Source: Rhodospirillales bacterium
GTDB lineage: Bacteria > Pseudomonadota > Alphaproteobacteria > Kiloniellales > DSM-21159
NCBI GenBank assembly: GCA_965247175.1
Contig: OZ252006.1
Location: 3,396,786 to 3,420,785, forward strand
DNA: 24,000 nt
Direction of reading: 5' to 3'
This document shows positions 3,043 through 23,633 of the stretch, one piece after another (position 1 is the first letter of the stretch; every line of letters starts with the position of its first letter). The notes beneath the pieces are model-generated. The model saw nothing but the letters and a program-made list of their open reading frames with translations. It was not told the origin of the DNA and did not search any database. Both the position numbers and the translations under genes were made by a program.

Positions 3043-3065
3043 CCGTGAAGCAAGCGGCTTCACGG
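3043..3065 (+). terminator. Perfect 9-bp stem / 5-nt loop hairpin between the MFS gene and sugE
   Basis: CCGTGAAGC (3043-3051), AAGCG loop, GCTTCACGG (3057-3065), about 53 nt after the MFS stop. There is no downstream T-run, so it is not a canonical intrinsic terminator. It could be a weak terminator or an RNA-stabilising element. Confidence 0.3.
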
Positions 3066-3117
3066 CGCGGCCCCATCCGTGGAGGATGCAAGCGACTGAG
3101 ATCTAGGAGTATCGAGA

Positions 3118-3471
3118 ATGAGCGCACTCGGCCTGTCCGCCGTATCGGTTGCTTGGATTGCCCTCCTCTTGGCCGGGCTCTTCGAGATTGGCTGGCCCGT
3201 GGGGCTCAAGATCTCCCAGCAGCCCGGCCGCTTTGCGCCCGGCATCGCCTTGGCCGGCGTCTGCATCTTCGTGTCGGGTATGCTTCTCTGGTACGCGCAG
3301 AAGACGATCCCCATCGGCACGGCCTACGCGGTCTGGGTCGGTATCGGGGCAGCGGGGACCTTCCTGGTCGGGGTCGCGTTCTTCGGCGATACGGCGACGC
3401 TTGTCCGGGTGCTCGGCATCGTGCTGATCGTCGGCGGCGTCGTGACGCTCAAGCTCGGCAGCGTCAGCTAA
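3118..3471 (+). CDS. sugE: SMR-family small multidrug-resistance protein, SugE/Gdx (guanidinium exporter) type
   Basis: 117 aa with four TM segments. GLFEIGWPVGLK (conserved membrane Glu) and PIGTAYAVWVGIGAAGT closely resemble E. coli SugE (LLEVVWAVGLK, PVGTAYAVWTGIGAVG). AGGAG at 3105-3109, 8 nt before the ATG. Confidence 0.85.
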   Translation: MSALGLSAVSVAWIALLLAGLFEIGWPVGLKISQQPGRFAPGIALAGVCIFVSGMLLWYAQKTIPIGTAYAVWVGIGAAGTFLVGVAFFGDTATLVRVLGIVLIVGGVVTLKLGSVS

Positions 3472-3483
3472 CGGCTTGCGGGA

Positions 3484-4122
3484 TCAGGTCAGCTCCCTTA
3501 GCCCGCTCGGCGTCTCGATCTCGGCCCGGTAGCGGAGCTTGGGCCCCCGGACGATCGCCGGCGGACGGTCGATGGCGAGGTCGCGGTAGAGCGCCTCGAT
3601 GGCGGCCGGATCGGGATGTTCCAGGGTGAAGCCACGGAGGCGGGCGCCGAGATCGGGGATGGCGCCCATGGGCTCGGGCGCCCCGCGGCGGTCGATGATC
3701 GAGGGGGCCGCGCCGTCGAGGGGGAGCGAACCGTCCGCGGGGATGGCAAAGGCGAACGAGGGGTCGGCCGGCGGCAGCGGCACCTCCTCCCCGAAGGTCC
3801 CGGGGTGGGCGGAGAGAAGGCCGGCCATGTCCGCGGTGCCGGCAACCCAGCCGCGCAGACGCCGTCCGTCGGCCCAGTCCGACCTGACCTGCGCTTGGTC
3901 GTCGAGACCGAACCAGCGGGCCTGGCCGGGCGCGATACCCTCCGGATCCCACGCCACGATCTCGAGATAGACCGCGCCGCCGAGCCGAAGCCGGTGATTG
4001 TGTGTGCCCATGTAGTCATGCGTCGCCCCGAAGGGCACATCGAGGCCGAGGCAGTCCCGGACATGCGCCACCCCTTCGGCCAAGCTGGGGGCGATGACGG
4101 TGATGTGGTCGAGCGTCAGCAT
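3484..4122 (-). CDS. VOC / glyoxalase-like domain protein
   Basis: 212 aa. MLTLDHITVIAPSLAEG...THNHRLRLGG..YLEIVAWDPEG is the pattern I associate with the glyoxalase-like (Glyoxalase_3-type) domain. GGAGG at 4132-4136 on the coding strand, 9 nt upstream of the ATG. Confidence 0.7.
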   Translation of the reverse strand: MLTLDHITVIAPSLAEGVAHVRDCLGLDVPFGATHDYMGTHNHRLRLGGAVYLEIVAWDPEGIAPGQARWFGLDDQAQVRSDWADGRRLRGWVAGTADMAGLLSAHPGTFGEEVPLPPADPSFAFAIPADGSLPLDGAAPSIIDRRGAPEPMGAIPDLGARLRGFTLEHPDPAAIEALYRDLAIDRPPAIVRGPKLRYRAEIETPSGLRELT

Positions 4123-4267
4123 GTGCGGAAACCTCCGTTGCTACCCCAGGAGCGCGGTCGATCGGACCTGCCGAGAAAATCGACGGGAACCTATGATCTG
4201 GATGGGTCTTCGGCGGGGCGAGTCCCTACCTAGACTACCGTGTGTTCAGCCGTCCAGGAGACCCGAC

Positions 4268-4681
4268 GTGCCACGAGAGACTTTGCAGCCGCCCAAACTG
4301 TTCGACAGCAAGAAATGGGGATTCTCGCAGGTCGTCGTCTCGCCGCCCGGACGGACCGTGCATATCGCCGGCCAGGTCGCATGGGATGCGAGCGAGCGCA
4401 TCGTGGCGGACGACCTGGAGAGCCAGTTCAGGAAAACGCTGGAGCACGTCTTCATCGCCGTTCGGGCGGCGGGCGGAGAACCGGACGACCTCCAGTCCCT
4501 TCGCTTCTATATCCCGAACTTCCGGCCGGGAGAGGACGCCGAGACGATCGCGCGCGTTCTCGTCGATGTCTTCGGCACGGAAAACCCGCCGGCCTCCTCG
4601 TGGATCGGCGTTCAGGCGCTGGCCCAGCCCGAGTATCTGATCGAGGTCGAAGCGACCGCCATCGTCCCGGACCCCGCATGA
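4268..4681 (+). CDS. RidA/YjgF family protein (second paralogue)
   Basis: VHIAGQVAWDASERIV...LESQFRKTLEHVFIAV...PASSWIGVQALAQPEYLIEVEATAIV fits the YjgF/RidA fold pattern. I chose GTG 4268 because AGGAG (4256-4260) lies 7 nt upstream. The track ORF begins at 4094, but that extension is Arg/Cys-rich and runs into the divergent promoter region. Confidence 0.75.
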   Translation: MPRETLQPPKLFDSKKWGFSQVVVSPPGRTVHIAGQVAWDASERIVADDLESQFRKTLEHVFIAVRAAGGEPDDLQSLRFYIPNFRPGEDAETIARVLVDVFGTENPPASSWIGVQALAQPEYLIEVEATAIVPDPA

Positions 4682-5316
4682 CTCCAGACGAGATCGCCCA
4701 TCGTTTCCCGCGGCTCTATCACGTGACCGAGCCGGGCGCGCAGGAGAGCGTGCGCCGGCACGGGCTGCTCTCGACCGTCGCGCTGCTCGATCTCTTCGAG
4801 ACGCCGGCGGCCGAACGGCTCCCGTTGTTGCAGGCGCGGCGGCCGGATCCCGTGCCGCTCTCCCACCCGGTCCATGGCCAAGCGATCCTCAACGACCAGC
4901 GGCCCTTGTCGATGAAAGCGCTGGAGACTTGCCTCGACGACGGCCTCGCGCCGGCCGATTGGCTCGGCCTGCTCAACGGCAAGGTGTTCTTCTGGCCAGA
5001 CGAAAAGCAGCTACAGCGCTTGACCCAGGCGCGCGCCAACCGGGCGCGCCAGCGGGAGGTCCTCGTCTTCGATACGGCGCGGCTGATGGAGGAGAGCTTC
5101 GAGCGACTGCGTCTCTCGCCGATCAACAGCGGCAATACCATGCGACGCCCGGCCCGGCGCGGCCTCGCCACCTTCGCGCTGGCCAAAGACCATGCCTGGG
5201 AGGACTGGCGCGGCCTGCGCGGACGCCGCGACAGCGTGGTCGAGATCGCCATCGACCATCGGGTTGCCTCGGCCGGCGATGCGCTCCTGGAGGTCAGGCG
5301 CGTCGGCGAGGCATGA
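4678..5316 (+). CDS. Conserved hypothetical protein with possible ADP-ribosyltransferase-like (H-x-T ... aromatic ... E) motif order
   Basis: The start ATG overlaps the ridA-like stop (ATGA at 4678-4681). 212 aa with FPRLYHVTEPG at the N-terminus, GKVFFWPDE mid-protein and SVVEIAIDH near the C-terminus. I recall similar proteins annotated only as a DUF, and I cannot name the family with certainty. Confidence 0.6.
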   Translation: MTPDEIAHRFPRLYHVTEPGAQESVRRHGLLSTVALLDLFETPAAERLPLLQARRPDPVPLSHPVHGQAILNDQRPLSMKALETCLDDGLAPADWLGLLNGKVFFWPDEKQLQRLTQARANRARQREVLVFDTARLMEESFERLRLSPINSGNTMRRPARRGLATFALAKDHAWEDWRGLRGRRDSVVEIAIDHRVASAGDALLEVRRVGEA

Positions 5317-7070: not shown

Positions 7071-7610
7071 TCAGTCTAGCTCGACGACCCCGCAGGCCAC
7101 GCGGGGTCCCGCGCCGCCGATCGGCTGGGTGATGTGATCGTCCGGGTTCTCGTGGATGACGAAGGCCGAGCCGTCGCTGTCGATCAGGTTCTCACCGGGA
7201 CCCTCGCCGATGCTGACGAAATGGGTGAAGAGCTCGACCTCTCCGATGCCGTCGGCGCCGATGAAGATGTTCGGCAGGTCGCCCGCTTCCGGGCCATCGG
7301 GATTCATCAAGCCGTGCGCGCCTGGCGCCTTGCCGACGTGACCCATGGATGAGGTGAAGCCGTCTTCGGGATTGCAGACCCCGGCGCTGTGCAAATGCAG
7401 CCCGTGCTTCCCAGGCGTCATGTCGGACACTCTGATGTGGATAAGGATTCCATGCGGGCCCTGCATGATGTTGGCGAAGCCGATCTCGTCGCCGTTGCCG
7501 TCAATCATGACGGCGCTGGCGGTTGCAGGCTCCGCGGCCACGGCGAGGCTGGACGCACTGAGGCAAATGCTGGCCGCCAAGGCGGCGATGCCGATCGATA
7601 GGGTCTTCAT
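7071..7610 (-). CDS. sodC: Periplasmic Cu,Zn superoxide dismutase
   Basis: GLHLHSAGVCNP, GHVG, GDLPNIFIGADG, SAFVIHENPDDH and GGAGPRVACGVV are the SodC metal-ligand and disulfide motifs. Signal peptide MKTLSIGIAALAASICLSASSLAVA. ATG at 7610 is preceded by GGAGGA (7616-7621 on the coding strand). The track ORF extension to 7697 is rejected. Confidence 0.9.
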   Translation of the reverse strand: MKTLSIGIAALAASICLSASSLAVAAEPATASAVMIDGNGDEIGFANIMQGPHGILIHIRVSDMTPGKHGLHLHSAGVCNPEDGFTSSMGHVGKAPGAHGLMNPDGPEAGDLPNIFIGADGIGEVELFTHFVSIGEGPGENLIDSDGSAFVIHENPDDHITQPIGGAGPRVACGVVELD

Positions 7611-7840
7611 TGTCTTCCTCCCGACTGTCTTTGGCCTATTGGTCCTTGCCATGACGTTCGGCGATTGAGACCGCGATCGGCCTGGACACCCACGCACGGC
7701 AGGTCGTCACGATAAAGCAGCCGCTCCGCAATCAGAAACTCGTTTCCCCATAGCTTTGATAGCCGATGCGAATGAGCGGGCGGATGCGATGGCCGAGCCG
7801 TGTCCGACGCGGCGCATCCTTCGACCGGCGGTAAGCCGGC

Positions 7841-10264
7841 TTAGGCCACCGCCTCCAGGCTCGGGACGGCCGCCGGGTCTTCGAGCGCTTCCCACTCCAG
7901 GTCCCCGACATAGCGGTAGGCGAGGCAGCCCTCGGCATCCATCGCAAAGAGGTGCAGCCAGCGATTGTCGAACAGCGCGCGCACCCCGTCGTGGCGCCGC
8001 AGGATGTCGGTCATGGCCTCGCGCGGCGCCTCGATGCAAACTGACAGGCGCAGCGGGTCATGGCTGCTCCGCTCGCCGTCGTTCACTGACTGCCAGGGCA
8101 GGCCGGCGCGCAGCAGCCCGCCGTTGCCTTCGAAGACACCGATGCCGCCGACCACGTTGTGCAGCAGCTTGTTGCCCGAGCCGAAGGTCTGCGGCGCGAC
8201 GGTCGAGCCGTAGTACTGCAGGCTGATCCAGCTCGCCACCACCACCGGCGCGGTCATGATCAGCTCCAGCACACCGAAGCCCTTCTCGCTGTCCTGCTTC
8301 CAGTCGTAGTCGTGCAGGAAAGCGCGGCCCTCCAGGCTGCGTCCGGCGGTGCGGCTGCGCGGGGCGGCGATGAAGGCCTTGCAGCCGGCCAGCGCCCATT
8401 CGGGCCGCACCTCGGCCCAGTCGCGAGAACGCGCGGCAATGTCACCTTCGGCGGCGGCGCGCGGCAGGCGCAAGGCCCGCTCGCCGCGCGTCACCTTGCC
8501 GGCCGCCGCCAGCCACTGCCGGACCCGCCGGAGGTCAGAGGCATGCTCGGGCGAGAGCCGGTCCCGGTCGTAGAGCGTCACCGCGTCGGTGGTTGTGTCG
8601 TGCAGCGCCGCGACGAAGAGCGTGTCCTCCGGCAGGATGATGCCCCGCGCCACCAAACCCTGGCGCACCTCCGTATCGTTGAGCAGCCCGGCCAGCAGCC
8701 GCGCGTTGACCTCTCCCGAGTAGCCGCCGCAGGCGCCGCAGTGCAGCCCGCTGGCATGGGGGTTGTTGACCACGTTGGCGCCGTGGCCGGCGAGCACCAC
8801 GACCCGGGCGAAGCCGCTGGTCAGCGACATGGCGCGCAGCACCGTCTCCGCCGCGCCGATGCGCGTGTCTAGGTCGAGCGACGGGTCGAAGCGCGGCGCG
8901 GGATCGTTGGGCACGGCCATGGGGTTGAGGCCGAGCGCGTCGCGAATCAGCTTGCCGATGTAGACCGGGCCCATGGCCTCGACGAAGGCGAAGGAGGAGA
9001 CGGCGGCGAGCTTGAAGCGCCCCCAGGCCCGCTTGGCACGCGCGGCATAGCGGGCGGCCAGATCGTCGGCCGCGCTGTCGTGGCTGCCCGAGCAGGAGGT
9101 GACGGTGGGGTTGAGCAGCACCGGCAGGCGCAACTCCTCCACGTCCGAGGCGAAGCGGCGATGCTTGGCGAAGACGCCGAAGAAGCCGGCGAAGCCCAGC
9201 GTGCGGATGGCGGGGTCGACGGCTTCGAGGGCGCGGCGGAAGACCTCCGAGCGCACGTCGATGCAGAAGGCCATCTGCAGGGCCGGCCGCGTCTCCCCGC
9301 CGAGGGGCGCCGGGGCTGCGAGCGTTTCGCCGAGGCCGCGTTGGGCGGCGCGCTCGGCGGCTTCCTGCAGGATGGCATCGACGATCAGGGCTGCGCCCGG
9401 CGCGGGCGCGGCCTCGTGCGCGACACGCACCATGCCCCAGTCGTCGGCGATCGCCGCCTCGTGCTGCGCGAACAAGGCCTCTTCCCAGAGCAGCCGGATG
9501 GCCAGGAAGTCAGTGATCGTGCTGTCCGACTCCTCGACCAGCTCGGCGCGCCAGAGCTGATAGCGCGCATACTGCGCCCAGCCGCCGAGCGAGAAGAGAA
9601 GCTGGTGGAAATAGCTCTCCAGCGCGCGTTCGCTTAGGCCGAGCCGCTGCACGGCGCGGGCGATCGCGTCCCGGGGGTTCTGCGGCGCCTCGGCGACGAA
9701 GGCGGCGAAGCCCTCCAGCCCCATGATCTCCGGCGTCAGGTCGTGGGTGCCGTGGGCGCAGAAGGCCGCCCAGGCGCGCTTGCCGCGCGGGGCCGCCCAG
9801 AGCGCCTGGCCCTGGTCGAAGTAGCCGCCCGCCCAGGCGCCGAAGCGCTCGGCGAGCAGGCCGGGCCAATCCATGCCGCTGGCCTCGGCTGCGAGATCGG
9901 CGATGGTCGGCAGCGCTTCGGGCTCCGGCCGCGCGTCTGCGGCGGCAGCCTTCAGCGCGGCGACGTCGGCCGGCTTGTCGGCATGGGGGGAGGCCGCCAG
10001 CGCGGCGGCCAGGTCATCCTCGGTGATCTCGCCGGAGGCAATGCGGCTGAGATACCAGTCGCGCGGCATGGCGACCGGGACCCCGCCGATACGGCCGAGC
10101 CGCGCGCCCGCTTCGGCGAGCGTCTCACCGGTTTGTCCAAGGTAGGGATTGACCGCGACGTAGGAGGCGAGCGGCCAGAGCGGCGGGATCTGGCGGGCCG
10201 CCGCGTCGCCGGCAGTCTCAAGAGCCGAGAGGTCGATGGGCGCAGTCGTGGCGTCGGTCATCAT
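7841..10264 (-). CDS. dabA: DabA (DUF2309) - catalytic, beta-carbonic-anhydrase-like subunit of a DAB inorganic-carbon pump
   Basis: 807 aa with [41 protein letters not shown] and [27 protein letters not shown]. Start ATGATG at 10264/10261 with AGGAG (10274-10278 on the coding strand) 9 nt upstream. It lies 22 nt after the dabB stop. Confidence 0.9.
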
Positions 10265-10286
10265 GGGTCTTGTCTCCTCTCGGGGG

Positions 10287-11846
10287 TCAGGCGGAGCGGC
10301 GGCGGGACCAGTTGCCAACCAGGCGGTCGAACACCGCGTTGGCGTAAAGCCCGTTCGACAGGTGCACGCGCAGGCCGGCGGCGGCCGGGTGATAGGCCCA
10401 GAGTGGGAACATGGCCTGAGCGATGGCCACCATGCCGAAGCTGAAGACCGCGAGCGCCAGAAGCGTCCATTCGAGCGGCCCCGGCGCGGGGGTCGGCGGC
10501 AGGGTGCCGGCGGTCAGCCATTCCGCGCCGGTCTGCAGGGCGAAGTAGCTGACAGAGGCGACGACGGCGTAGAGCGCGACGCGACGGGTCAGCACCTGCG
10601 GCGCCGCATCGGCCAATCCCTGGGCCAGGAGGTAGGCGACACCGAAGATCAGGATGGCGCCCAGGGCGATGGCCTGCGGCGACTTGCCGTCGAGCCCGAA
10701 GGCGAAGGCGGTCACCGCATAGATCGCCAATGCCAGGACGAAGGCGCGGGCCACCGCCCAGCCGTTGGGGATGGCGACCGGGCCCGGCCGGCGAATAGCC
10801 GCCACCAGGTCCACCGCCGTGCCGGAGGCCAGGAAGGCGTGCGCCTTATAGAGCGAGTGGGCGACGATGTGCAGCAGCGCCAGCGGGAAGAGCGCCAGGC
10901 CGCACTGCATGATCATGAAGCCCATCTGGGCGATGGTCGACCAAGCGAGGGAGCTCTTGACCGCCGGCTGGGCCAGCATGGCAAGCCCGCCGAACAGCGC
11001 GGTGAAGCCACCCACCATGACCAGAACCGCCAGAATGCCCGGCGCCAGCAGCATCACGTCGGCAAAGCGGATCAGCAGGAAGCCGCCGGCGTTGATCACC
11101 CCGGCATGCAGCAGCGCAGAGACCGGCGTCGGCGTCTCCATCACCTCGATCAGCCAGCCGTGGGTCGGGAACTGCGCGGACTTGAGAATCGCGGCGAGCG
11201 CCAGCAGGCCGGCCGCCCAGATCGCTCCGGCAGGGGCGACGCCTTCGCGCGCCTCCGTGAGGATCGTTTCGATGTCGGCGGTGCCGTAGCCGAAGAAAAG
11301 TAGCAGCGCCGCGCCGATCAGGGCCGCATCGCCGAGCCGCGAGGTCACCGACTTCTTGCGCGCCGCCCGGATGGCCTGGATGCGGCTGCGATAGAACAGC
11401 AGCAGCCGATGCAGGCAGAGGCTGGTCGCCACCCAGGCGGCGACCAGGTGGACGAGGTTGCCCGACTGAACCAGCAGCAGCACGGCGGCCAAGGTTGCGG
11501 TCATCCAGCCGAGGAAGGCGCCCTGGCGCGCTTCGCCATCGAGATAGGAGCGGGAGTAGCGCACCACCACCCAGCCGACGAAGGCGACGAGAACCAGCAT
11601 GATGGCGCTCACCGCATCCAGCCGTGACGACAGCCCGACCTCCCCGATGCCCAGCAGCGGCCCGGTGCCGGCACCCTCGACGATCACGATCGCTGCCGCG
11701 CCAAGCGCCGCGGCCAGCGCCACCAGGGCTGCGGCCTCGGCGAACTGGGGGACCAGCTTTGGGCGCTGCCCCGGCCGCGTGAAGGCGAAGGCCGCGGCCA
11801 GGAGCAGCACGGCGGGGGCGATCAGGGGCACGAGATCGTAGAGCAT
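10287..11846 (-). CDS. dabB: DabB - NuoL/NuoM/MnhA-type cation-translocating membrane subunit of a DAB pump
   Basis: 519 aa and polytopic, with the proton-antiporter-core motifs [28 protein letters not shown] and [15 protein letters not shown] 11846 ([16 protein letters not shown]) has GGAGAC upstream. The alternative GTG at 11912 would add a 22-aa Pro-rich extension. Confidence 0.88.
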
Positions 11847-11944
11847 CGGCAGGTCGTCTCCGGGGACGGGGCGGGGCGGCGGATCGAACGCTTCCGGATC
11901 TAGGCCCTGCACAGCATCAAGAAAAATACATTGTTTTGGGCTTT

Positions 11945-11965
11945 TCGTTCTGTTTCATAGAACGA
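11945..11965. promoter_or_regulatory. Perfect dyad TCGTTCT-N7-AGAACGA (contains a T-N11-A LysR-type box) in the dabB/lysR divergent region
   Basis: TCGTTCT 11945-11951 and AGAACGA 11959-11965 are exact reverse complements. The dyad sits in an unusually AT-rich stretch and ends 2 nt before the regulator ATG (11968). Confidence 0.55.
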
Positions 11966-11967
11966 TT

Positions 11968-12855
11968 ATGGCCGAGCTGAACTATCACCATCTGCGCTAT
12001 TTCCAGGTCGTCGCGCACGAGGGCAACCTGACCCGGGCGGCGGCGCGGCTGAACGTGTCGCAGTCGGCGGTCTCGACCCAGATACGCCAGCTCGAGGAGC
12101 GGGTCGGCCAAGACCTCTTCGAGCGCCGCGGCCGGGCGCTGATTCTCACCGAGGCGGGGCGCATCGCGCTCGACCATGCCGACGCCATCTTCGCCACCGG
12201 GCAGGAGCTCATCGCCACACTGCAGCAAAGCGGGCGCGCGCGGAAGGCGCTGCGCGTCGGCTCCCTGGCCACCCTATCGCGCAACTTCCAGCTCGCCTTC
12301 CTGCGCCCGATGCTCGGCCGGCCCGATGTCGAGGTCATCCTGCGCTCGGGCAGCGCGGTCGAGCTCTACAGCGCGCTCGCTGCCTTGAATCTCGATCTGG
12401 TGCTGACCAACCAGCCACCGCCGGCCGACGCCTTGACCTCTTTCATCGCGCAGCGCCTGGACGAGCAGAGCGTCAGCCTGATCGGCGTGCCCGCGCTCTG
12501 CCCGCCGGGCCTGTCCCTGGCCGAGCGCCTGGACGAGGCGACCCTCGTCCTGCCGACGGCGGGCAGCGGCCTGCGCATGGGCTTCGATGCCCTGATCGAC
12601 CGGCTGGGTGTGACGCCGCAGATCGCCGCCGAGGTCGACGACATGGCGATGATGCGTCTCTTGGCGCGGGAAGGGGTCGGCCTGGCCGTGCTGCCGCCCA
12701 TCGTGGTGCGCGACGAGCTGGCGGGCGGCAGCCTGGTCGAATGCGCCAAGCTGCCCAATCTCACCGAGCCCTTCTATGGCGTCACGGTCGAGCGACGCTT
12801 TCCCAACCCGCTGCTCGCCGACCTGCTGCGCGAGACGCGGGTTGGGTCTGCGTAG
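11968..12855 (+). CDS. LysR-family transcriptional regulator, NhaR-like subgroup
   Basis: MAELNYHHLRYFQVVAHEGNLTRAAARLNVSQSAVSTQIRQLEERVGQDLFERRGRAL matches by eye the NhaR N-terminus (..NYNHLYYFWHV.KEGS..GAAEAL.L.PQTIT.QIRALEERL...LF.R.GR.L). It is divergent from dabB. Confidence 0.85.
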   Translation: MAELNYHHLRYFQVVAHEGNLTRAAARLNVSQSAVSTQIRQLEERVGQDLFERRGRALILTEAGRIALDHADAIFATGQELIATLQQSGRARKALRVGSLATLSRNFQLAFLRPMLGRPDVEVILRSGSAVELYSALAALNLDLVLTNQPPPADALTSFIAQRLDEQSVSLIGVPALCPPGLSLAERLDEATLVLPTAGSGLRMGFDALIDRLGVTPQIAAEVDDMAMMRLLAREGVGLAVLPPIVVRDELAGGSLVECAKLPNLTEPFYGVTVERRFPNPLLADLLRETRVGSA

Positions 12856-12860
12856 CAGCG

Positions 12861-14081
12861 TCAGGCGCTCTGTGCGGCCAGCGCCGCCGGGCCCCGGGTG
12901 CGACGGGCGGCGCGGTGCTCTGCCCTGATGAGCCAGACCACCGCGAGTCCGGCCAGGCTGGCGAAGACCAGGCCCGCGGCGACGAAGCCCATGGGCTCCC
13001 AGGCCTCCATGGCGGCGCCGAAGGCCGGCGGGCCGCCGAGCGTGCCGAGCTGGTAGAGCACCAGGAAGGCGGCGTTGGCGGCGGCCAGGTCCCTGACCGG
13101 CAGGCGCTCGCCCAGGATGGCGAGGCCCAGCGTGTAGTAGGCGCAGGCCACGCCGCCGAGCACGAAGACGGCGACCAGGGCGAGCAGCGGGCTGCTGCCC
13201 ACGGCGAGGCCGGCCGGGAGGGCCAGGGCCACGAAGCCCGCGATCAGCCCGAGCATCAGCCGCTCGCGCCGCATGCGGTCGGCCAGCCAGCCGAACAGGA
13301 AGGCGAGCACGACGCCGCCCCACAGAAAGGCGCTGACCAGATGCAAAGCCGTGTCGGCGCTCGCCTCCTGGCGCAGGGCGAAGTTGGGAAGCAGCGAAAT
13401 GTAGGAATATTCGATCACACCGGCGACCAGGGCGCCGACCATGCCGATGGGCACGGCGCGCGCGATGGTCAGGAAGCTGCCCGAGGCGTGCGCCTCCATG
13501 GGCGGCGCCAGACGCCAGGCCAGCAGCAGCGGAATGCTGGCCAGAAGCAGCGCGGCCCCACCGAGGAAGTAGGGCGCATCGCCGTCCATCGGCAGGACAC
13601 CGAGGGCGATCGGGCCGGCGCCGTAACCGCCGAAGAGCGCCACCACATAGAGGGCCAGCACCCGGCCGCGCGTCTCCTCGCTGCTGACGCTGTTGATCCA
13701 GGTCTCACCGAGCAGCCAGGGGAACAGCAACCCGAGGCCCATCAGAAAGCGCAAGACCATCCAGCCCTCGACGCTTTGCCACAGGGGCAGCAGGGCGAAG
13801 CCGATCAGGCCCAGCACGCAGCCGCCCGCCATGGCCGGCACGAATCCGAGGCGGGCCGAGATGCGCGGCGCGAAGGGCAGGAGCACGAGGGCGGCCAGCG
13901 CCGGCATGCCGGCGGCGAGGCCGGTCACCCAAGCGGGCGCCCCCCAGGCTTCGAAGGTGAGCGAGGTGAGCGGATAGCCGACGCCGTGCGCCAACCCGAG
14001 AAAGAAAGTCGCCACGACGACGACGGCGATGCCGAGCGCGCGATCGTTTCGGCTCAGCAATGAGGTCGAAGCTGTTGCCAT
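12861..14081 (-). CDS. MFS transporter
   Basis: 406 aa with about 12 hydrophobic segments. ATG 14081 (MATASTSLLSRNDRALGIAVVVV) has AGGAGA 7 nt upstream. The track start at 14147 is rejected. It is convergent with the LysR gene (5-nt gap) and divergent from a TetR gene. Confidence 0.8.
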   Translation of the reverse strand: MATASTSLLSRNDRALGIAVVVVATFFLGLAHGVGYPLTSLTFEAWGAPAWVTGLAAGMPALAALVLLPFAPRISARLGFVPAMAGGCVLGLIGFALLPLWQSVEGWMVLRFLMGLGLLFPWLLGETWINSVSSEETRGRVLALYVVALFGGYGAGPIALGVLPMDGDAPYFLGGAALLLASIPLLLAWRLAPPMEAHASGSFLTIARAVPIGMVGALVAGVIEYSYISLLPNFALRQEASADTALHLVSAFLWGGVVLAFLFGWLADRMRRERLMLGLIAGFVALALPAGLAVGSSPLLALVAVFVLGGVACAYYTLGLAILGERLPVRDLAAANAAFLVLYQLGTLGGPPAFGAAMEAWEPMGFVAAGLVFASLAGLAVVWLIRAEHRAARRTRGPAALAAQSA

Positions 14082-14114
14082 GGAGAGTCTCCTGAAGAGT
14101 CGTCTGTCTCCCCA

Positions 14115-14127
14115 GTGCCCAGGGCAC
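14115..14127. promoter_or_regulatory. 13-bp palindrome GTGCCC-A-GGGCAC in the MFS/TetR divergent region (candidate operator)
   Basis: Exact 6-bp arms at 14115-14120 and 14122-14127. The spacer also carries a 22-nt-spaced direct repeat TTCTGCA (14140-14146, 14162-14168). Confidence 0.35.
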
Positions 14128-14146
14128 CGGAGACTTGATTTCTGCA

Positions 14147-14175
14147 TTGCAAAGATATAAATTCTGCACTATAGA
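14147..14175 (+). promoter_or_regulatory. Candidate sigma70-type promoter for the TetR gene (TTGCAA-N17-TATAGA)
   Basis: TTGCAA 14147-14152, a 17-nt spacer, then TATAGA 14170-14175, in the only AT-rich patch of this spacer. AAGAGGA (14182-14188) follows, then the TTG start at 14198. Confidence 0.3.
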
Positions 14176-14197
14176 GATTTCAAGAGGACTCGTTGAT

Positions 14198-14866
14198 TTG
14201 CCGAGAAAATCTGTGCGGCCCGGCCCCAAGGGCCTGGCACCGGAGGAGATCGTGATGGCCGCCATCGCGGTCTTGGAGGAGGAAGGCCTGGGCGGCTTCA
14301 GCGTCCGCAAGGTCGCGGCGCTGATCGGCTGCGACGTCATGGCCGTGCTCTATCACTACAAGTCCAAGGAGGGCTTGGAGCGGGCCATGGCCGACGCGCT
14401 CAACGCGCGCCTGGTGCCCGTCGATCCCGAAGCGCCCTGGCGGACCCGCCTGGCCGAGCTGGCCTGGCAGTACCGGGCGCTGGCGCTGACCTTCCCCAAG
14501 ACCTTTCCGCTGCTGCTCCGCTTCTGGGTCACCGGCCCGGCCGACTACCGCCACGCGGAGATGGTCTACCAGGCCCTGGAGGATGCCGGCCTGTCCGACG
14601 AGGAGGTCGTCGACTGCTGCTTCGGCTGGTACGCCAGCGTGCTGGGCCTCGCCGCCGCCGAGGCGGGCGGGCTGCTGCAGCCGGCAAGCGCCGAGATGCT
14701 GGCCGAGGTGGAGAGCCTCTCGCCGGGCGACTATCCCATCACCGTCCGCCTGCTGCCGGCCTTCCGCAGGCAGCGGGAGGGCCGTAGCTTCGCCCTGATG
14801 GTCGAGGCGACCCTGACGGGCATCGAGCGTACGCTGGTCGGGCGTTCGGGCACGTCCGCAGGCTAA
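14198..14866 (+). CDS. TetR/AcrR-family transcriptional regulator
   Basis: HTH region EEIVMAAIAVLEEEGLGGFSVRKVAALIGCDVMAVLYHYKSKEGL. The start is uncertain: TTG 14198 has a Shine-Dalgarno at 9 nt, and the alternatives are ATG 14135 (track) and GTG 14213. Confidence 0.8.
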   Translation: MPRKSVRPGPKGLAPEEIVMAAIAVLEEEGLGGFSVRKVAALIGCDVMAVLYHYKSKEGLERAMADALNARLVPVDPEAPWRTRLAELAWQYRALALTFPKTFPLLLRFWVTGPADYRHAEMVYQALEDAGLSDEEVVDCCFGWYASVLGLAAAEAGGLLQPASAEMLAEVESLSPGDYPITVRLLPAFRRQREGRSFALMVEATLTGIERTLVGRSGTSAG

Positions 14867-15360
14867 GCTCGCAGAAATCGCCGGCAGAGTTCGTCGGCGA
14901 AGGCGTGATGAGCGTGCCAGTCCGCCGCCACGGCTTTGCCGTACGTCACCACGCTGCTCAGGTGTGCTTCTGGGCCATCGCCGGTCGCAACATCGCGGAT
15001 GGACACGCTCGCGCGTGGCCAAATTGAGAGCGCGTCGTCGATCCGCGCGGCGGCGAGAGCACGCCGAAGCGGAACGATCCGGCCGTGCGGAAGCTCGAGC
15101 GCGCACTGTGCGTAGAGCGCCGTGAGATGCAGGATCGCGGACCGCCTTGCCCGCGGGTCCGGCCCCTGGCTGTGTTGCAGCGCATAGGCGTCCGTCAGCA
15201 TCTGATGCGCGGGCCAGTAGGCGACATCACTGTAGTGCAGGGCCAAGGACTGGTTGAAGCAGGCCCAGCACCCCGCCGAAGCGGAGAGATAGGCATGGGT
15301 CGGGCCGGGTGACGGCGCGAAGTCGGCCCCGCATCCCGGGCAGGCAAACATCTCTCTCAT
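14863..15360 (-). CDS. Small conserved hypothetical with N-terminal CxxC-N20-CxxC (DUF5946-like by recollection)
   Basis: 165 aa. MREMFACPGCGADF...SAGCWACFNQ gives four Cys at positions 7, 10, 31 and 34. It is the last gene of the EamA-GT1 string, and its stop codon overlaps the convergent TetR stop (CTAA at 14863-14866). Confidence 0.6.
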   Translation of the reverse strand: MREMFACPGCGADFAPSPGPTHAYLSASAGCWACFNQSLALHYSDVAYWPAHQMLTDAYALQHSQGPDPRARRSAILHLTALYAQCALELPHGRIVPLRRALAAARIDDALSIWPRASVSIRDVATGDGPEAHLSSVVTYGKAVAADWHAHHAFADELCRRFLRA

Positions 15361-15396
15361 CTCTTTGTCTTTGGCTGTCGCCGCGCTTCGGCCGGC

Positions 15397-16662
15397 TTAC
15401 GCCGGCACGGCATGCCGTTCTATGAGGTTGGCGGCAGTCTCGGTGCCGCCTTCCTCTGCCATGCGGTCGCCCAGCACCTGCGCCTTGTGCCGAACCTGCG
15501 CCGACTGCAGCTCTCGCAGCGCGGCGGCCAAGCGCTCTTGCGTCAGGCGCTTGAGGGGCAGGGGCGCGGGGCCGACGCCGAGCCGGGCGACCATTCGGCC
15601 CCAGAAGGGCTGATCGCCGAACAGCGGGCAGATCAGGGTCGGCCGCCCCCAGCGCAGGCCGGCGTGCGTTGTCCCGGCGCCGCCGTGATGCACCACCGCC
15701 CGGCAGCGGGGAAACAGCCAGTCGTGCGGAAGGCTGTCGACGATGTGGACGTCATCGGAGGCCGGCACCTCGGAGAGCGCACCCCAGCCCTTGGCGAGGA
15801 TGGCGCGCGTTTTGGTCTCGGCCAGCGCGGCAAGAAGGGCCGAGGCCGGATCACCGCCCCGGACTTTGGGCATGCTGCCGAAGCCGACGTAGACCGGCGC
15901 CGGCCCAGCCTCGAGAAACCGCGCCAACTCGGCCGGCGGCTCCCAGCCTGTCTTCTCCGGCAAGAACCAGTAGCCGGTCACATGCTCCTCCGACCCCCAG
16001 TCGGGGGGCTTGGGAACGATGTGGCGGCTGTGGGCATGGAAGCGCGGGACCGCTCCCCCTCCCGGGCGATAGCCGGCCAGGACGTCCAAGCCGGGTCGGG
16101 CTATCTCCCCCGGATGCCGGGCGAACCACTTGCGCAGCAGCATCCGATAGGCCAGCCGCATGGCCGCGACCACGGTGCGCCCGGATAAGCGATTGGCCAG
16201 CGGGCCGAGATCGGGCAGCGGCAGCAACGGATTGGGAAAGCCGCCGGTCGGAACGTAGGCTGGCTGCAGGAAGGCGGGGAGAGCAACGGCGCCGAGCGAG
16301 CGCGCGAGATAGGGCGCCAGGACGGCCTTGGGGTGATAGATGATCAGCTGGGGCCGGACAGCCTGGGCGATCGCCCAGGTCTCGTCGAGCTGGCGCTGCA
16401 TCACCTCTTGGCTGGCGCGGAAGGCCTTGAGCCAGCCCCGCGGCGACTCCATGGCGGCCTTGATCTCGGGCTGCGCCATCGCCGCCTGCGGGTCGAAGGA
16501 GAGCGGTGCCGCCGTCAGCCCATGCGCTTCGATCAAGCTCTCGAAGCCCTTGCCCGTGCTCAGCGTCACACTGTGGCCGCGGGCGGTCAGCACGGCGCCC
16601 AGCGCGACGAAGGGCTGCACGTCGCCGCGCGAACCGAGGGTGAGGAGCAGGATGTCGGTCAC
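15397..16662 (-). CDS. GT1-family (GT-B, UDP-sugar dependent) glycosyltransferase, MGT/sterol-glucosyltransferase-like
   Basis: N-terminal LGSRGDVQPFVALGAVLTARGHSV and the C-terminal nucleotide-sugar motif VVHHGGAGTTHAGLRWGRPTLICPLFGDQPFWG. GTG start at 16662 with no strong Shine-Dalgarno. Confidence 0.85.
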   Translation of the reverse strand: MTDILLLTLGSRGDVQPFVALGAVLTARGHSVTLSTGKGFESLIEAHGLTAAPLSFDPQAAMAQPEIKAAMESPRGWLKAFRASQEVMQRQLDETWAIAQAVRPQLIIYHPKAVLAPYLARSLGAVALPAFLQPAYVPTGGFPNPLLPLPDLGPLANRLSGRTVVAAMRLAYRMLLRKWFARHPGEIARPGLDVLAGYRPGGGAVPRFHAHSRHIVPKPPDWGSEEHVTGYWFLPEKTGWEPPAELARFLEAGPAPVYVGFGSMPKVRGGDPASALLAALAETKTRAILAKGWGALSEVPASDDVHIVDSLPHDWLFPRCRAVVHHGGAGTTHAGLRWGRPTLICPLFGDQPFWGRMVARLGVGPAPLPLKRLTQERLAAALRELQSAQVRHKAQVLGDRMAEEGGTETAANLIERHAVPA

Positions 16663-17654: not shown

Positions 17655-18101
17655 CTAAGGAAGAAACTCGGAGTTCCGGTGATGAAGCTCCCATTGGCCC
17701 GATTGACTTCTGTGCCAGACGTTCACGAAACGTAGCGTGCCGGAGACGGCGGTCTCGCCGAAGCTAACATCGACGACCCCCTGACCATAGCTGACGATGG
17801 TGGCGCCGAAATCCCTGAAGGTCATGTCGGGGGTGTCCGCGCGGGTCACGACGACCGCGCCGCCGGTGACCAGGTCGATGAAACTCGCTTCGTCATAGGT
17901 CACGCCGGAGCCGTGCTGATACGCGAAGCCGTCGGCCAGGAGTCGACCGAACGCCTCTCGGTCGGCATCCAGAAAGGCCCGGTAGAAGTCCGCCTCTTGC
18001 GCCCGCACCGCCGCTATCCCGGCGGAGGGGGCCTCTGCCCGGCTGTCGTTCGCGCAAACCATCAAAGCGATCGCCAAGGCCGCACCGAAAAGCGCTCTCA
18101 T
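17655..18101 (-). CDS. Secreted SnoaL/NTF2-like (DUF4440-type) protein
   Basis: Signal peptide MRALFGAALAIALMVCANDSRAEA. EADFYRAFLDADREAFGRLLADGFAY ... VNVWHRSQSGQWELHHRN is the NTF2-like/DUF4440 pattern. GGGAGA 6 nt upstream of the ATG. Confidence 0.7.
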   Translation of the reverse strand: MRALFGAALAIALMVCANDSRAEAPSAGIAAVRAQEADFYRAFLDADREAFGRLLADGFAYQHGSGVTYDEASFIDLVTGGAVVVTRADTPDMTFRDFGATIVSYGQGVVDVSFGETAVSGTLRFVNVWHRSQSGQWELHHRNSEFLP

Positions 18102-22404: not shown

Positions 22405-22995
22405 TCAGTCGCGCAAGGCCGGATAGGCGCGGACATAGACCCAGTCGGTGGCCTGGGCCGGGACATGACAGGACTTGCATTCTTCGGCGTAGTCCTGGGT
22501 CACGAGGGTTCCAGGCGCATCGGCGGCAAAGAAACCCCAGCCCCAGCCGTCGCCCCACAGCGGATTGTCGGGGTACCTGTCGCTGCTGTCCTTCACCATG
22601 ACGAACCAGCCTTCGAGGTCGGTCGCGTAGGACACCCGCCCGGTCGTGAGGTCTTCCGTCCCGGCCGAGCGCAGCTCCTTGACCAGCACCGTGCCGTCGG
22701 GAAACGCGCCTGTCGCCCGATAGGCTTCGGCGACGCCCGGCTGGGTGTAGACGATGTGCATGCCCTCGGCGCCATCTTCCCCGTTGACGGACCAGCTTCC
22801 CAACATCGTCCAATCGGTCCGAAACGGGAGATCGGGCAGCATGATCGCGCCGTTCTCGTCCACGGCGACGTCGAAGCCCGACACCACCGGAGCAGCGTCC
22901 TGCGCCGACGCAAGGGTCGCGGCGGCTAGGACGGCGGCCCCGATAAGAGCCGTTGCGCAGATGCGCAGATCTCCCGCTGTCGGAAGCCGCCTCAT
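22405..22995 (-). CDS. Cytochrome P460 family protein (paralogue 2)
   Basis: Signal peptide ending LASAQD. Single C-terminal haem motif CKSCH (22465-22479) followed by DWVYVRAYPAL. GTVLVKEL carries a Lys (22678-22680) at the position of the haem cross-linking Lys. The start overlaps the upstream paralogue's stop (ATGA on the minus strand, 22992-22995). Confidence 0.8.
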   Translation of the reverse strand: MRRLPTAGDLRICATALIGAAVLAAATLASAQDAAPVVSGFDVAVDENGAIMLPDLPFRTDWTMLGSWSVNGEDGAEGMHIVYTQPGVAEAYRATGAFPDGTVLVKELRSAGTEDLTTGRVSYATDLEGWFVMVKDSSDRYPDNPLWGDGWGWGFFAADAPGTLVTQDYAEECKSCHVPAQATDWVYVRAYPALRD

Positions 22996-23633
22996 GGTTT
23001 CGCCGCCCGGAGCACAGGGTAGTACTGGGTGAAGACGAAATCGTCCGCCGCGTTCACTTCATGACAGGCGTTGCACGCATCGGCGGGGAAAGCCGTCGCC
23101 GTCTCGGCATAGGGCTCGGGTTGGTGGCCGAAAGAGAAGTATGCCCAGTTCCCGGGCTCGTCCGCGAAACGGGCCGCATCCTTCACTTTCAGTTCGAGGC
23201 CCGCGAACTCGCCCGGGAAGTAGCCTTGGCCTGACGTTTGGGCGCAGGAGCCGTTACTCGGGTCCGGGTCGCAGTCTTCGGCCTGGCGGAGCAGCACGAG
23301 CTCCTTCACAAGCTGCGTCCCGTCCGCCCATTCGCCGGTGCGCTGCCAATAGGCGAAGGCAGACGGCTCGATGTAGACATTGTGGTACTCCGGAAACGGC
23401 GCTTCGCCGCCATTGAGCGCGTTGGGGGTCAGCGGCGCGCCGACGAACACCCAGGACCGCCAGTTCTCCGGCCTGATAACGTCGCCATCGGACGTGAACT
23501 CTGCTCGGGCGATATCTTGAGCGGCGGCGGGATCTTGAGCGGTGGCCGGCAGGATGCCGGCCACCAGTCCGATGCCGATGGTAAGCGCCAGCGCGGCTGG
23601 CCATTGGATGGTGTTGAAGCTCAGATTGGACAT
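22992..23633 (-). CDS. Cytochrome P460 family protein (paralogue 1)
   Basis: It resembles Nitrosomonas europaea cytochrome P460 as I recall it: AEF..DG..I.P.NWR.WV.VG...TPN.LN.G.APF, GTQLVKEL (Lys at 23304-23306), KVKDAARFADEPGNWAYF, and CNACHEVNAADDFVFTQYYPVLRAAK (CxxCH at 23061-23075). Signal peptide ends PATAQD. AAGGAGA lies 5 nt upstream of the ATG. Confidence 0.85.
   Translation of the reverse strand: MSNLSFNTIQWPAALALTIGIGLVAGILPATAQDPAAAQDIARAEFTSDGDVIRPENWRSWVFVGAPLTPNALNGGEAPFPEYHNVYIEPSAFAYWQRTGEWADGTQLVKELVLLRQAEDCDPDPSNGSCAQTSGQGYFPGEFAGLELKVKDAARFADEPGNWAYFSFGHQPEPYAETATAFPADACNACHEVNAADDFVFTQYYPVLRAAKP

Follow-up and report, generated by a model that had tools for sequence, protein, structure and literature searches.

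A dabB-dabA gene pair beside a divergent lysR gene

We analyzed a 24,000-nt stretch of contig OZ252006.1 from a Rhodospirillales bacterium (the window, meaning this whole stretch, whose positions are used throughout), with a focus on two adjacent minus-strand genes, dabB and dabA, that probably encode a bicarbonate-accumulating DAB complex, and on a lysR gene that diverges from dabB. As a preliminary description of the window had noted, the pair consists of open reading frames (ORFs) for proteins of 519 and 807 amino acids separated by a short gap with a Shine-Dalgarno sequence, and the peptide motifs quoted there were all found in the two translations. The divergent lysR gene was absent from that description. 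The genes and their spacer are as follows.

10287-11846, minus strand: dabB, encoding a predicted NuoL-like polytopic ion-conducting subunit of 519 amino acids (ATG at 11846, TGA stop at 10287)
10265-10286, minus strand: dabB-dabA spacer of 22 nt containing the Shine-Dalgarno sequence GAGAGGAGA, read directly from the sequence
7841-10264, minus strand: dabA, encoding a predicted beta-carbonic-anhydrase-like, cytoplasmic catalytic subunit with a membrane hairpin, 807 amino acids (ATG at 10264, TAA stop at 7841)
11968-12855, plus strand: lysR, divergent from dabB, encoding a putative dabBA regulator of 295 amino acids (PF00126, E = 4e-24; PF03466, E = 3e-21)

The tight spacing between dabB and dabA implies co-transcription. 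We consider the ATG gene models right because the nearest relative, a metagenome-assembled genome of Rhodovibrionaceae (locus L001, 93% DabA identity), is colinear from MLYDLVPL in dabB and MMTDATT in dabA with identical protein lengths, and because the alternative dabB start, GTG 11912, lies inside the conserved promoter region described below. Two longer ORFs were rejected, namely a 541-amino-acid version of dabB starting at GTG 11912, which falls among the conserved promoter elements, and an 825-amino-acid version of dabA starting at TTG 10318, in view of start conservation in L001. Ratios of nonsynonymous to synonymous substitution rates against L001 were 0.126 for dabA, 0.126 for dabB, and 0.090 for lysR, values that indicate purifying selection on each of the three.

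DabA matched PF10070 over the full profile (E = 2.2e-259, 863 bits, profile positions 3-747 of 747), and DabB matched PF00361 (E = 7e-39) and PF00662 (E = 4e-9), so that the PF10070 and PF00361 assignments named in the preliminary description were recovered as strong matches. The best matches in the PDB were the two chains of the Halothiobacillus neapolitanus DAB2 complex: 9rd0_A (DabA2; E = 4.1e-171, residues 20-786) for DabA, and 9rd0_B (DabB2; E = 1.3e-73, query residues 8-510 against chain residues 14-523) for DabB. The best NuoL or NdhF chain reached only E = 3e-44 with DabB, about 30 orders of magnitude behind DabB2. None of the NCBIfam models matched DabA. For DabB, the nearest was NF006029, "NADH-quinone oxidoreductase subunit L," at 356.8 bits, just below its cut-off of 380; DabB also matched MnhA models, and every NuoL and MrpA model scored under its own cut-off.

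No DabC ORF was found between or after dabB and dabA, whose flanking genes are lysR and sodC, and we therefore assign the pair to the DAB2 subtype rather than to DAB1 (DabABC). Given full-length profile matches, best structural matches to DAB2 chains, and retention of all the catalytic and coupling residues listed below, the identity proposed for the pair in the preliminary description held. We estimate a probability of roughly 0.85 that dabB and dabA encode a two-subunit DAB2-type DAB complex, a vectorial carbonic anhydrase, with a regulator of its own, which is the best explanation of the sequence. The pair had also been described as routinely mis-annotated. This applies to the NuoL-named NCBIfam model and to RefSeq, in which a homologous plasmid pair is labeled "proton-conducting transporter membrane subunit" and "DUF2309 domain-containing protein," but not to Pfam, in which PF10070 is now named "DabA, probable inorganic carbon transporter subunit." Our analysis provides a correct functional label for a gene pair still carried under generic RefSeq names.

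The locus is an ordinary member of a very large, well-described, and now structurally solved DAB clade, and nothing here alters the existing picture of DABs. Our own results cover the structure of the genes, the family to which they belong, and the conservation of residues, of the module, and of its candidate operator. They add to the preliminary description the conserved LysR regulator with this candidate operator and a clade-level variant at DabA position 508.

Catalytic and ion-path residues of the predicted complex

Reference residues were taken from two cryo-electron microscopy preprints, describing DAB2 (Lo et al., 10.64898/2026.03.13.711513) and DAB1 (Phillips et al., 10.64898/2026.05.01.722082), and were mapped through HMMER alignments and checked by index. 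The corresponding residues are listed below, with those of H. neapolitanus in parentheses.

DabA zinc ligands: C334, H494, and C509 (C351, H524, and C539)
DabA Asp-Arg dyad: D336 and R338 (D353 and R355)
DabA proton-relay Ser: S339 (S356)
DabA Leu replacing the Gln/His of canonical beta-carbonic anhydrases: L625 (L658)
DabA tunnel gate: R620 and W623 (R653 and W656)
DabA hairpin Glu: E429 (E444)
DabA lid motif: GFAGFFG
DabB ion pair: K222 and D173 (K235 and D185)
DabB Arg three residues ahead of the ion-pair Asp: R170 (R182)
DabB hydrophobic residue at the NuoL E144 position: V139 (I151 of DabB2)
DabB essential His: H247 (H260)
DabB triad in transmembrane helix 11 (TM11): H326, H330, and K334 (H-x3-H-x3-K)

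Across a diverse alignment of 62 DabA homologues (36-81% identity), C334, D336, R338, S339, C509, and L625 were invariant, while H494, R620, and W623 were each present in 61 sequences and Glu occupied the E429 column in 53. L625 sits within the motif DW(x3)RPEW.L, which is present here, and the GFAGFFG lid motif was detected in 119 of 120 close homologues. Judging by these residues, the zinc site is intact, with the Cys-His-Cys ligands and Asp-Arg dyad of the beta-carbonic-anhydrase type, as are the Lys and His residues of the predicted ion path in DabB. A confident AlphaFold2 model of DabA (mean predicted local distance difference test score 89.9, predicted template modeling score 0.91) contains a long helix hairpin at residues 395-443, formed by two helices (395-422 and 425-443), the second of which carries E429. 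In this model, the hairpin corresponds to the expected membrane-inserting "finger" or "elbow."

The mechanism and residue roles described for homologous DABs (10.64898/2026.03.13.711513, 10.64898/2026.05.01.722082) suggest how the complex could work. CO2 diffusing into the cell would be hydrated at the deeply buried Cys-His-Cys zinc site of DabA, while cations, most likely H+, would flow inward through the NuoL-like DabB. This flow would be passed to DabA via the helix hairpin inserted into the membrane and via loops that surround the zinc site, so that substrate and product tunnels would open and close, hydration would run one way, and bicarbonate would rise above equilibrium.

The LysR regulator and the intergenic region

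The lysR product combines an N-terminal HTH_1 domain with a LysR_substrate domain. We compared the locus with 80 related genome loci and, for the operator, with 73 related intergenic regions. In 72 of the 80 loci, a LysR homologue was encoded upstream of dabB in divergent orientation, most exceptions being contigs too short to show this flank, and the same arrangement was found in two plasmid loci (L081 and L082). The lysR-dabB intergenic region spans 121 nt and holds three elements.

11945-11965, not strand-specific: inverted repeat TCGTTCT-N7-AGAACGA of the T-N11-A type with 100% complementary arms, candidate LysR recognition site
11922-11935, minus strand: box AACAATGTATTTTT, candidate activation site at the dabB promoter, where it overlaps position -35
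11897-11902, minus strand: -10-like TAGATC, whose leading TA (11902-11901) is invariant at fixed spacing across the 59 loci described below and lies 20 nt past the box

The box lies exactly 12 nt from the palindrome and occurs once in the window, where 0.01 chance matches would be expected. In 59 of the 73 intergenic regions, a GTTC-N9-GAAC core was found together with the box at an unchanged distance; across these 59 loci, most box positions were more than 90% conserved, and the sequence between the elements varied freely. In the classical LysR layout, a recognition site near -65 and an activation site overlapping -35 precede a -10 element, and the 27-bp centre-to-centre spacing seen here is as expected for LysR-type regulators. 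The palindrome, box, and TA fit this layout, with a predicted transcription start near 11890.

The most likely targets of LysR are the GTTC-N9-GAAC palindrome and the AACAATGTATTTTT box, and we infer that, bound there, it would switch on dabBA under inorganic-carbon shortage and repress lysR itself. Only 3 nt separate the lysR start codon from the end of the palindrome (11965-11970), no Shine-Dalgarno sequence is recognizable for this codon, and the placement of CAT immediately beside A(T/A)CGTTC is kept across relatives. This proximity of start and putative operator implies autoregulation, and translation initiation may be unusual. The combination of LysR and a fixed-spacing operator across dozens of genera represents a testable regulatory layer, which could show how heterotrophic marine bacteria sense inorganic-carbon shortage.

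Functional role, spread, and comparison with known systems

The most likely role of the system, by analogy with homologues, is to supply bicarbonate for carboxylases in a heterotroph living at ambient or low CO2. Bicarbonate supply in a heterotroph has been shown for MpsAB of Staphylococcus aureus (PMC6689103) and has been proposed for heterotroph DABs (10.1101/476713). The anaplerotic or other heterotrophic use suggested in the preliminary description is a reasonable proposal.

Several points weigh against a DAB2-type complex with its own regulator acting in this way. Both the DAB activity and the coupling ion of this locus are taken over from homologues, MpsAB has been argued to use Na+ (10.64898/2026.03.13.711513), and the nearest relatives of the locus are marine or halophilic. 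With 24 kb of the genome in view, an autotrophic role, linked to a RuBisCO encoded elsewhere, would be conceivable if unlikely. The effector and binding site proposed for LysR derive purely from conservation. Scans with the sigma-70 consensus and for terminators called neither a promoter nor a terminator for the dabBA operon, although failure of the sigma-70 scan at TAGATC is as expected, since the promoter would be activator-dependent. Finally, A504 and H508 stand here at the positions of DabA E704 and D708 of Thermocrinis albus.

In T. albus DAB1, E704 and D708 belong to the loop NNPYESALDCGACGG and form hydrogen bonds with DabB beside the zinc Cys (10.64898/2026.05.01.722082). With both DabB-contacting acidic residues replaced, the details of coupling may differ at this locus. 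The loop motif NNP....CGACGG, which links DabB to the active site, is present with the Asp changed to H508, which also replaces Asp538 of H. neapolitanus DabA2 and adjoins the zinc Cys. The corresponding column of the diverse alignment contains D in 36 sequences, H in 8, Q in 8, A in 5, E in 3, and N in 2. Among the 120 closest homologues, in 118 of which the motif was found, about 100 have His, the others have Gln, Asn, or Tyr, and Asp never occurs, so alignment evidence identifies His508 as a clade-level variant at the proposed coupling contact. Covariation of residue 508 of DabA with the post-TM11 segment of DabB was sought in 12 natural fusion proteins, a small sample in which the segment is too variable, and no compensating change emerged. 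The clade-wide change from Asp to His, Gln, or Asn beside a zinc ligand offers a natural variant for probing the DabA-DabB coupling models of the 2026 cryo-electron microscopy preprints.

DABs were first found as parts of CO2-concentrating mechanisms (10.1101/476713), and dabBA could accordingly be the uptake arm of such a mechanism for a RuBisCO encoded elsewhere in the genome, with or without carboxysomes. The clade of the locus does include known phototrophs and autotrophs: Rhodoplanes, Acidiphilium, and Thioalkalivibrio are among its members, and Rhodovibrio, a phototroph, belongs to the nearest family, Rhodovibrionaceae. Moreover, among solved structures the LysR protein comes closest to 5y2v_A (E = 1e-15), a "Rubisco operon transcriptional regulator" from cyanobacteria, but this similarity is weak and generic. 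We nevertheless regard this explanation as rather unlikely. Consistent with the preliminary description, profile scans of the window revealed no RuBisCO or carboxysome genes, nor were nuo, mrp, cbb, or carbonic-anhydrase genes found in its 24 kb. A crude motif test detected no RuBisCO signature within 6 kb on either side of dabA in the 80 related loci, and the named relatives belong mostly to marine heterotroph genera.

A second alternative, which we judge improbable, is that the pair forms a Na+-coupled HCO3- transporter, with DabB conducting Na+, instead of an H+-coupled CO2 hydratase. S. aureus MpsAB has been argued to be driven by a Na+ gradient (discussed in 10.64898/2026.03.13.711513) and is called a bicarbonate transporter (PMC6689103), the relatives of our locus are largely marine or halophilic, and the top NCBIfam match of LysR is the Na+-responsive NhaR, a weak hint at 110 bits against a cut-off of 219. 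On the other hand, CO2 is favored as the substrate by the intact zinc site of the beta-carbonic-anhydrase type and by the hydrophobic residues of the tunnel, the Lys and His of the NuoL proton path are kept in DabB, and DAB2 of H. neapolitanus has no need of Na+ and does not rescue a strain without the sodium antiporters NhaA and NhaB (10.64898/2026.03.13.711513).

The idea that DabB is a stray or remnant complex I or Mrp subunit next to an unrelated DUF protein, or that the pair generates membrane potential by exporting ions at the expense of an exergonic DabA reaction, as hypothesized in the 2017 COGNAT study (PMC5700660), can draw on the NuoL and MnhA model matches but is extremely improbable: no nuo or mrp gene adjoins dabB, as had been observed before, DabB2 is far ahead of NuoL and NdhF as a match, the pairing with DabA is kept among relatives, and experiments showed that a gradient drives inorganic-carbon accumulation and not the reverse (10.64898/2026.03.13.711513, 10.64898/2026.05.01.722082).

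The predicted DAB2-type module recurs widely. dabB precedes dabA in 79 of the 80 related loci, the exception (L061) being a 2.9-kb contig that starts inside dabA. Of 8000 scored candidates, 5814 were DabA homologues at E ≤ 1e-10, and 2869 clusters at 50% identity were obtained at the same threshold. Gammaproteobacterial DabA sequences (Woeseiaceae, Thioalkalivibrio, and Wenzhouxiangella) share 76-77% identity with ours, compared to 66-70% for many alphaproteobacterial copies, and DabA matched 126 plasmid records. We inspected the lysR-dabB-dabA trio in two of these, one of them a 30-kb mobilizable Sulfitobacter plasmid. The closer gammaproteobacterial copies and the plasmid occurrences suggest horizontal spread of the module. 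Together with the clade-wide substitution, they are compatible with a more speculative and, at present, doubtful picture, in which the LysR-linked clade would be a self-contained mobile inorganic-carbon cassette with a dedicated sensor and a rewired coupling interface. If so, the regulator would use an operator of rigid spacing to respond to the status of inorganic carbon or of cations, and A504 and H508 could make gating or the coupling ion differ from those in H. neapolitanus and T. albus.

Two further genes on the same strand, often with 4-nt overlaps, come after dabA in 23 of the 80 related loci and on a plasmid of Mesorhizobium terrae, encoding a PAPS_reduct-domain protein (PF01507; "CysD" in RefSeq) and a DUF6671 protein (PF20376); neither gene is present in our window. 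Examples are L008 (8451-10207), L057 (8497-10250), and L081 (7424-9216), as well as L053, L073, L080, and others. This gene order suggests a four-gene operon variant composed of dabBA and the PF01507 and PF20376 genes.

Downstream of dabA, at a distance of 143 nt on the same strand and with no predicted terminator between, lies sodC, encoding a Cu/Zn superoxide dismutase (7071-7697, minus strand). It was rejected as an operon member given that it is not conserved beside dabA in any of the 80 relatives. On the lysR side, a cluster at 12861-16662 contains genes for a major facilitator superfamily (MFS) transporter, a TetR regulator (14135-14866, plus strand), a DUF5946 protein, and a macrolide/EryCIII-like glycosyltransferase (15397-16662, minus strand). 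Synteny with L001 extends over the MFS and TetR genes on this side but breaks directly after dabA. Two paralogous cytochrome P460 genes, adjacent and overlapping, are found at 22405-22995 and 22992-23633, both on the minus strand; each matches PF16694 (E ~1e-25), a family associated with the chemistry of hydroxylamine and nitric oxide. Proteins with domains of unknown function only are encoded at 4240-5316 (plus strand), 14863-15360 (minus strand), and 17655-18101 (minus strand), with DUF7002 (E = 1e-63), DUF5946 (E = 4e-23), and DUF4440. ORFs of 194, 205, and 308 amino acids (3045-4233, plus strand; 14180-15106, minus strand) had no Pfam match. The 308-amino-acid ORF runs antisense to the TetR gene, which it overlaps, and probably represents a shadow ORF due to high GC content. 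Searching the window for Rfam families and tRNA genes gave no hits.

Among known systems, CupA/CupB of cyanobacterial NDH-1 resemble the locus in coupling vectorial CO2 hydration to an NdhF/NuoL-type subunit (10.64898/2026.05.01.722082). In contrast, their catalytic subunit is unrelated, and their complex is redox-driven and part of a large NDH-1 complex; the locus is not a member of this group. MpsAB of S. aureus and NdhF-YbcC of B. subtilis are alike by description, with a NuoL-like gene first and a YbcC-like gene second. PMC6689103, together with 10.1101/476713, presents MpsAB as supplying bicarbonate for growth in air to a non-autotrophic host; it differs in that its coupling ion is disputed. 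No link between a LysR regulator and MpsAB is reported in the literature searched. The same layout as here, a reverse-orientation LysR gene 5' of a nuoL-like and ybcC operon, was described for the "clade A" ybcC neighborhoods of the COGNAT paper (PMC5700660), which predates the discovery of DAB function and includes neither the operator nor the His/Gln/Asn substitution.

DAB1 (DabABC) of T. albus and H. neapolitanus shares the DabA and DabB folds with our locus as well as three DAB-specific motifs, namely the G(I/F)(A/G)GFFG lid, NNP....CGACGG with the loop changes described above, and DW(x3)RPEW.L, and differs in having a DabC gene and in retaining the two acidic contact residues. H. neapolitanus DAB2 (DabB2/DabA2; PDB 9rd0, 9rd8, and 9rd9) is also composed of two subunits without DabC, and with it both proteins align full-length and share the zinc site, the dyad, Leu658, Glu444, the gate Arg and Trp, and the DabB ion-path residues. 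Differences from DAB2 include moderate identity, several shorter loops (807 amino acids here compared to DabA2 numbering up to 827), and His508 in place of Asp538. Our locus further differs from DAB2 in its alphaproteobacterial host, with no CO2-concentrating genes visible in the window, and in its divergent LysR gene with a conserved candidate operator.

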